Shown: positions 24,252 through 24,468 of the stretch, piece after piece | How positions within the stretch are numbered: position 1 is the stretch's first letter | How the letters are laid out: each line of letters begins with the position of its first letter | Source: Escherichia coli | GTDB lineage: Bacteria; Pseudomonadota; Gammaproteobacteria; Enterobacterales; Enterobacteriaceae | NCBI RefSeq assembly: GCF_003334305.1 | Contig: NZ_QOWS01000024.1 | DNA: 64,000 nt | Reading direction: 5' to 3' (one strand) | Made by a program: the position numbers and the translations under genes | The notes under the pieces: generated by a model | What the model was told of the DNA's origin: nothing | What the model saw: the letters and a program-made list of their open reading frames with translations, nothing else | Databases searched by the model: none

Positions 24252-24468
24252 ATGTGAATGTAGGTCGCATTCGGCACTTATTGTCGGATGCGATGCTTGC
24301 GCATCTTATCCGACCTACGAATCGCATCGAATCTGTAGGCCAGATAAGGCATTTTCGCAGCATCCGGCACTTATTGTCGGATGCGATGCTTGCGCATCTT
24401 ATCCGGCCTACAAATCGCATCGAACCGTAGGCCGGATAAGGCGTTTACGCCGCATCCGGCAAATAGTT
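24252..24468. repeat. BIME/REP array (tandem REP palindromes, about 100-bp unit duplicated)
   Basis: Repeated GGCACTTATTGTCGGATGCGATGCTTGCGCATCTTATCCG(A/G)CCTAC units and a GCCGGATAAGGCG...GCATCCGGC palindrome between convergent ybhJ and ybhC. Confidence 0.75.

Follow-up and report, generated by a model that had tools for sequence, protein, structure and literature searches.

The ybhJ-ybhC spacer of Escherichia coli carries a probable BIME-2 repeat array that varies in unit number among strains

Introduction

The convergent genes ybhJ and ybhC of E. coli are separated by a spacer that is filled with short palindromic repeats. The locus raises two questions: what kind of element these repeats form, and whether their number is the same from strain to strain. 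Both were addressed for a window of 64,000 nucleotides of E. coli DNA (the whole stretch analysed, to which coordinates refer unless another sequence is named), by comparison with other genomes of the species and with its relatives.

Results

Layout of the ybhJ-ybhC spacer

The spacer is 233 bp long (24244-24476), lies between two converging gene ends and corresponds to positions 805,765-805,997 of MG1655; the gene names come from RefSeq records annotated on identical DNA. Over 521 bp including the feature, the window matches strain M18 at every base and K-12 at all but one. According to the listing of open reading frames, the array falls between the ybhJ and ybhC stop codons and is wholly extragenic. 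A truncated Y REP comes first, and two units (93 and 92 bp) follow in tandem, each of which contains, in order, a short linker, a z2-like REP (37 nt, in the CTAC orientation), a linker of 15-16 nt and a Y REP (35 nt):

24241-24243, plus strand: ybhJ stop codon (TAA), the end of ORF 21958-24243; ybhJ is annotated in identical DNA
24244-24259, no strand: left border AAAGCGCCATGTGAAT, 16 nt, compared between alleles
24260-24276, plus strand: truncated Y REP, 3' half, GTAGGTCGCATTCGGCA, aligning to the 3' end of Y
24277-24369, plus strand: unit 1, 93 bp, from repeat search and gapped alignment; linker CTTAT, z2-like inverted REP (24282-24318), 16-nt linker (24319-24334) and degenerate Y REP (24335-24369)
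24370-24461, plus strand: unit 2, 92 bp, from repeat search and gapped alignment; linker CTTAT, z2-like inverted REP (24375-24411), 15-nt linker (24412-24426) and intact Y REP (24427-24461)
24462-24476, no strand: 15-nt gap between the last Y REP and the ybhC stop codon, read from the sequence and kept in the array-bearing alleles examined
24477-24479, minus strand: ybhC stop codon (TAA on the minus strand), the end of ORF 24477-25760 (minus), from ORF and annotation

The first-pass annotation had placed tandem REP units between convergent ybhJ and ybhC, which is where the array was found, and had rightly seen two copies that differ by substitutions. Its unit length of about 100 bp is corrected here to 93 and 92 bp, the further REP that it placed after the units is the Y REP that completes unit 2, and the truncated Y REP ahead of unit 1 (24260-24276) had escaped it. 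The counterpart of this truncated REP in locus L029 is GTACGCCGCATCAGGCA, which is nearer to Y, and a weak naRNA4 match in the Rfam scan (24263-24315) overlaps it. In the inspected copy of the MG1655 RefSeq record, there is no repeat_region feature at this spacer.

A repeat search of the spacer returned a direct repeat of 65 nt with a spacing of 93 nt and 95% identity, a second family of 35 nt with a spacing of 92 nt and 89% identity, and many inverted repeats. No exact direct repeat is longer than 41 nt (copies at 24272 and 24365), a length far above chance. Gapped alignment of 24267-24359 with 24360-24451 gave nine differences, nearly all of them in the half made of the 15-16-nt linker and the Y REP, and the halves made of linker and z2 are identical or one base apart. 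A covariance-model alignment shows three non-canonical stem pairs in the internal Y REP of unit 1, a degeneracy that looks like decay rather than constraint. Tandem Repeats Finder (TRF) gave no row for the window allele (2.1 copies), and reported the 93-bp period in the three-unit allele of E. coli and the five-unit allele of E. albertii described below; the array is real despite the empty output, as the program misses an array of 2.1 copies.

Several observations concern the neighbourhood of the spacer. A 135-residue ORF on the minus strand (24013-24420) crosses the array into the end of ybhJ; it is almost certainly spurious, since it merely translates palindromic repeats on the strand opposite a real gene. 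Between ybhC and ybhB, an exact phage lambda attB core (GCTTTTTTATACTAA) is present at 25807-25821; a lambdoid integrase or prophage is found there in several strains (PG20180173, 042), and an integrase remnant in BLR(DE3). In BLR(DE3), a deletion (L010:1500-1601) has removed the genes between gal and ybhJ, so that a truncated galM runs into the final 102 bp of ybhJ; the spacer, with one unit, is intact.

Identification of the array as BIME-2

To identify the element, its parts were compared with the known REP and BIME classes. The spacer contains four full REPs of 35-37 nt with a GTAG/CTAC foot, plus one half REP, and the median number of matches to a spacer query is 25 per E. coli genome. 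Three further copies of the intact Y REP lie in the window, an exact one at 50832 and two with a single mismatch each at 34127 and 56105; chance alone would give none. BIME-2 elements are defined as tandem copies of alternating y and z2 REPs with short linkers in the Gilson/Bachellier nomenclature, and their variation in copy number between strains is known (Ton-Hoang et al. 2012, PMC3333891). Here, Y and z2-like REPs stand in inverse orientation, and the Y-linker-z2 segment aligns to a canonical Y+z2 unit at 56060-56142. The copies are in tandem and their linkers measure 5 and 15-16 nt; the long L linker of BIME-1, which binds IHF, is absent, and the copy number at ybhJ-ybhC differs among strains (0, 1, 2 or 3 units in 5,426 genomes). 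We therefore regard the feature, with good confidence, as a BIME-2-type REP array: non-coding, non-autonomous and minisatellite-like, with proposed roles at transcript 3' ends and as a gyrase barrier. No Y1-transposase gene is adjacent, the flanking genes being ybhJ (a hydratase) and ybhC; the array is a dispersed BIME copy and not a REPtron.

A CRISPR array was considered and rejected. The segments between the long repeats are themselves members of a second repeat family (REP) rather than unique spacers, and the neighbours are ybhJ and ybhC, with no cas genes at the flanks, in agreement with the earlier judgement that the periodic, palindromic sequence is not CRISPR.

Further REPs are present elsewhere in the window. 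That at 56063-56139 (minus strand) is a canonical single BIME-2 unit, which scores 78.4 bits with the naRNA4 model, above threshold; two Y REPs, at 34085-34161 and 50789-50866, each adjoin an ES036/CssrF match. The whole-window Rfam scan also returned a Moco riboswitch at 35391-35535 (plus strand, 103.6 bits), and two tRNAs and an RtT match within 1-151 and 185-310.

An Rfam match in the spacer bears on the reading that the units are transcribed into naRNA4-like two-hairpin RNAs acting with HU in nucleoid condensation, which we consider very improbable. The Rfam naRNA4 model (RF02564) aligns end to end at 24338-24408 (plus strand), the changes in the z2 stem are compensatory, and in published work two such hairpins were enough to make an RNA active in vitro (Qian et al. 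2015, PMC4550694). However, the score of 59.4 bits is 0.1 bit below the gathering threshold of 59.5, and the Y hairpin of this best match is the internal one with its three non-canonical pairs. In addition, no promoter-like site was found in or beside the spacer, and the family model amounts essentially to any Y+z2 unit.

Copy-number alleles across E. coli

To determine how often the unit number differs, alleles were counted in 5,426 complete E. coli genomes using allele-specific short queries. Megablast coverage with queries of 521, 428, 614 and 707 nt is unsuited to counting, because pieces that reuse one subject unit join to 100% coverage. Genomes with at least two units were counted with a 71-nt internal-junction probe (16-nt linker, degenerate Y REP and next linker) at no less than 95% identity. 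The following classes were obtained:

REP-free: spacer of 68-70 bp, 508 genomes (9.4%)
One unit: spacer of 139-141 bp, about 2,137 genomes (39%), by subtraction
Two or more units: spacer of 233 bp or longer, 2,781 genomes (51.3%)
Three units: spacer of 326 bp, 4 genomes seen, at most about 8

The one-unit figure is a remainder that includes a few deletions, and it is supported by systematic samples of the match lists (14 of 39 rows and 23 of 59 rows). Four or more units were not detected in the 5,426 genomes, in which no genome has more than two internal junctions.

The one-unit class comprises two forms. The common allele, 140 bp, has the 15-nt linker of unit 2 (O157:H7, UTI89, BL21-type strains and AF58). 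In the second, 141 bp, the 16-nt linker of unit 1 is joined to the intact Y REP of unit 2, as in strain 13P460A (L136:290-430), where the junction reads ATCT/GTAGGCC; this form was found in 216 genomes, counted as partial matches of the 71-nt junction probe, with the form read by inspection. In the three-unit alleles, the order is unit 1, unit 1, unit 2. Well-known strains and serotypes are distributed as follows:

K-12: 2 units
BL21 family: 1 unit
O104:H4, O103, O111: 2 or 3 units
O157:H7: 1 unit
UTI89: 1 unit
042: REP-free
IAI39: REP-free

We take K-12 and the BL21 family to belong to phylogroup A, O104:H4, O103 and O111 to B1, and O157:H7 to E; UTI89 is presumably B2, 042 D and IAI39 F. For IAI39, membership of clade F is documented (PMC3333891).

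The length variation between strains that had been predicted from the window alone is thus borne out, with spacers of 68-70, 139-141, 233 and 326 bp in E. coli and of about 521 bp in E. albertii. An invariant spacer, which the first-pass annotation had named as the outcome that would overturn its prediction, is at odds with these several length classes. It had anticipated the variation in copy number, and had missed the REP-free, terminator-bearing spacer of about 9% of strains. Assemblers can collapse repeats, so the classes could in principle be artefacts of assembly and not real alleles, but the chance of this is negligible. Units of 93 bp fit well inside single reads, every class turns up in numerous complete genomes of independent origin and has SNPs and breakpoints of its own, and the reference strains MG1655, O157:H7, UTI89, 042 and IAI39 agree. 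With its classes of 68-70, about 140, 233 and 326 bp, the spacer might serve as a cheap PCR length marker for some E. coli lineages.

Recurrent gain and loss of units

The flanks of the alleles indicate that there have been several changes in unit number and that they are recent. The one-unit allele of AF58 shows no differences from MG1655 over 480 flanking bases, and the YbhJ and YbhC proteins are identical between the two; the three-unit allele of the O103 strain ML775 has flanks identical to those of the window. Alleles with one and with three units therefore lie on flanks identical to those of two-unit alleles, and the one-unit state itself exists in two breakpoint forms. One-, two- and three-unit alleles each occur on both haplotypes of the right flank.

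All products of gain and loss are in register, and neighbouring units share 41-45 nt of perfect identity. This identity, together with the hairpins, would favour misalignment of units in replication or recombination, by which whole 93-bp units may be gained or lost. The exchange point would lie in the identical 41-45-nt stretch of linker and z2 or, for the 141-bp allele, in GTAGGCC. Replication slippage, to which the first-pass annotation had pointed, is a plausible cause of these changes; unequal recombination and the action of TnpA_REP would yield the same products. The 141-bp allele implies a crossover within only 7 nt of identity (GTAGGCC) beside a CT dinucleotide, a breakpoint easier to reconcile with slippage or TnpA_REP cleavage than with homologous exchange.

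Cleavage and rejoining of single-stranded BIMEs by TnpA_REP/RAYT, in place of slippage or unequal exchange, appears unlikely to be how the units were added and removed, although several observations speak for it. TnpA_REP cleaves and recombines BIMEs in vitro, and BIME amplification has been modelled on this activity (PMC3333891). The GTAG and the stem mismatch of two bases, which the enzyme requires, are both present in the last Y REP, and the junction of the 141-bp allele places CT next to GTAG. On the other hand, the unit that is duplicated in the three-unit alleles carries the degenerate Y REP with its broken stem pairs, which is expected to be a poor substrate; no tnpA_REP gene lies near ybhJ-ybhC, activity in vivo is not established, and misalignment of the 41-45-nt perfect repeats explains every product equally well.

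The two-unit strain CX05 (L007) shares five left-flank SNPs, at the 3' end of ybhJ, with the REP-free strain WCHEC96200 (L006), and this sharing implies recombination close to the spacer.

A REP-free allele with two terminators

The REP-free spacers of IAI39 (L003:445-514), 042 (L135:5704-5771) and WCHEC96200 (L006:445-513) are, like those of the other genomes among the 508, a different sequence of 68-70 bp and not a deletion product of the array; in the 5,426 genomes searched, this sequence was found in none of those that bear the array. The allele contains two face-to-face intrinsic terminators (hairpin plus T-run), one for each gene. Three terminator-like sites were found in the IAI39 allele, covering both strands, and none at 23900-24800 of the window. 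The array was accordingly rejected as an intrinsic terminator, since no GC-rich hairpin stands directly before a U-run. In IAI39, ybhJ is annotated as a pseudogene with its N-terminus missing (L003:1-444).

Between the two allele types, about the first 18 nt past the ybhJ stop codon can be aligned. The left border of the array resembles the first arm and loop of the ybhJ-side terminator hairpin of the REP-free allele, at about 15 of 19 positions with two indels. The resemblance is suggestive only of a relic of that terminator arm.

Relatives and age of the array

Relatives were sought by a pattern scan of species-representative genomes for the aconitase motif of YbhJ. Among the matches listed, E. 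albertii, two divergent records titled E. coli and five Citrobacter genomes were usable. In E. albertii NBRC 107761 (L014:1463-1981, reverse strand), the spacer is about 521 bp and holds five 93-bp units (TRF: 5.1 copies, 91% matches) between the same left and right borders as in E. coli. Because five units stand at identical borders in this species, the array at ybhJ-ybhC is older than E. coli. The two divergent records, SCPM-O-B-8794 and E69, have one unit each. The Citrobacter spacers, among the matches listed, contain either an unrelated pair of REPs, one Y-like and one other (L035, L070 and L103), or a single plain bidirectional terminator (L017 and L093); in L093, a GTAGGTTGGATAAAACG fragment lies beside the terminator.

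The aconitase-type motif NVINWGMLP is encoded exactly in many genomes of Megasphaera, Veillonella, Acidaminococcus and Clostridia (L011-L130, among the matches listed), which indicates that the YbhJ family is widespread in gut Firmicutes.

The array form of the spacer is present in E. albertii, in the two divergent 'E. coli' lineages, and in strains that we take to be of phylogroups A, B1, B2 and E. One interpretation, doubtful and put forward tentatively, is that the spacer has long been dimorphic in Escherichia, with a BIME-2 array in some lineages and an unrelated pair of face-to-face terminators in others. If this dimorphism is true, and maintained rather than accidental, the BIME-2 array would do the work of two intrinsic terminators in their place.

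Discussion

Possible roles of the array

Both strands of the spacer fold far better than shuffled sequences (z-scores of -8.5 and -10.4), with hairpins predicted on both. Since array alleles have no terminator of the hairpin-plus-U-run type and the REP-free allele has one for each gene, the array hairpins would most likely be 3'-end structures of the ybhJ and ybhC transcripts, acting as mRNA 3' stabilisers or attenuators. Published work describes mRNA stabilisation and attenuation of transcription by REP hairpins at transcript 3' ends (PMC3333891). As DNA, the array would most likely be a gyrase-binding topological barrier between the two converging transcription units. Gyrase cleavage is enriched in a subset of BIME-2 elements, with a preference for y REPs (PMC6379681), and BIME-2 elements are described as supercoiling barriers at the borders between supercoiling domains (PMC10592627). 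By analogy, a domain border between converging genes would make sense. In the portion of the supplements of the gyrase-mapping paper that was available (PMC6379681), no entry for ybhC or ybhJ was found.

Any function of the array must be dispensable or insensitive to dose, because about 9% of strains are without it and 39% have half of it. A serious alternative is that it is largely a neutral passenger: a selfish or neutral sequence without a cellular role, tolerated between two gene ends. We judge this to be possible, if on the unlikely side. Alleles of zero, one, two and three units all circulate, the internal Y REP is decaying, and the corresponding spacer of Citrobacter contains either two unrelated REPs or a plain terminator, all of which would be expected of a passenger. 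However, the array alleles have lost both canonical terminators, so that the transcripts must be ended or stabilised in some other way; the array has been kept at the same borders since before the split of E. coli and E. albertii, and roles have been published for BIME-2 (PMC3333891, PMC6379681, PMC10592627).

A more specific proposal is that the last Y REP is mainly a translational brake on ybhC, stalling the terminating ribosome. Translation can be reduced when a REP hairpin is less than 16 nt away from a stop codon (PMC12306157), and the last Y REP starts 15 nt past the ybhC stop codon, a distance kept in all array alleles seen. The case is nevertheless borderline, as pairing in the predicted hairpin begins 18 nt away from the stop codon. 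Moreover, neither ybhC nor ybhJ was found in the accessible portion of the supplements of PMC12306157 (the RepRanger paper), and the rest of the array is left unexplained. We consider a main role of this kind quite unlikely, and retain 3'-end structure and gyrase barrier as the most likely roles of the array.

The result adds little beyond confirming a standard BIME-2 array that behaves as a small variable-number repeat. Of mild interest are the allele frequencies, the two breakpoint classes, the five-unit array of E. albertii and the dimorphism between array and terminators. The natural series of zero, one, two and three units could be used to test the effects of BIME-2 on transcript ends and on supercoiling between convergent genes, and likewise its proposed roles in mRNA stability, translation braking, gyrase binding and supercoil insulation.

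Comparison with known systems

Four known systems invite comparison with the array. Like a CRISPR array, it is made of periodic, partly palindromic direct repeats, but its period is 93 bp and the element is found at dozens of loci per genome. It shares with the face-to-face terminators (042, IAI39; 508 genomes in total) the same spacer and presumably the same need, to end two converging transcripts. Unlike them, it lacks the combination of hairpin and U-run; its length is three times theirs and is variable, and copies of the repeat are spread over the genome. REP325/naRNA4 is built of the same tandem two-hairpin unit (Y, linker and z2; six units in REP325), although the linker is 6 nt shorter in the window array.

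The closest system is BIME-2 itself, from which the array differs in detail. The z2 copies here are a variant (GTCGGATGCGATGC...GCATCTTATCCGAC) that departs from canonical z2 at three stem pairs, each of them compensated. The array also opens with half a Y REP and has a degenerate internal one. These differences are variation inside the BIME-2 family and not a departure from it. Both the element and its copy-number behaviour belong to a family that has already been described.
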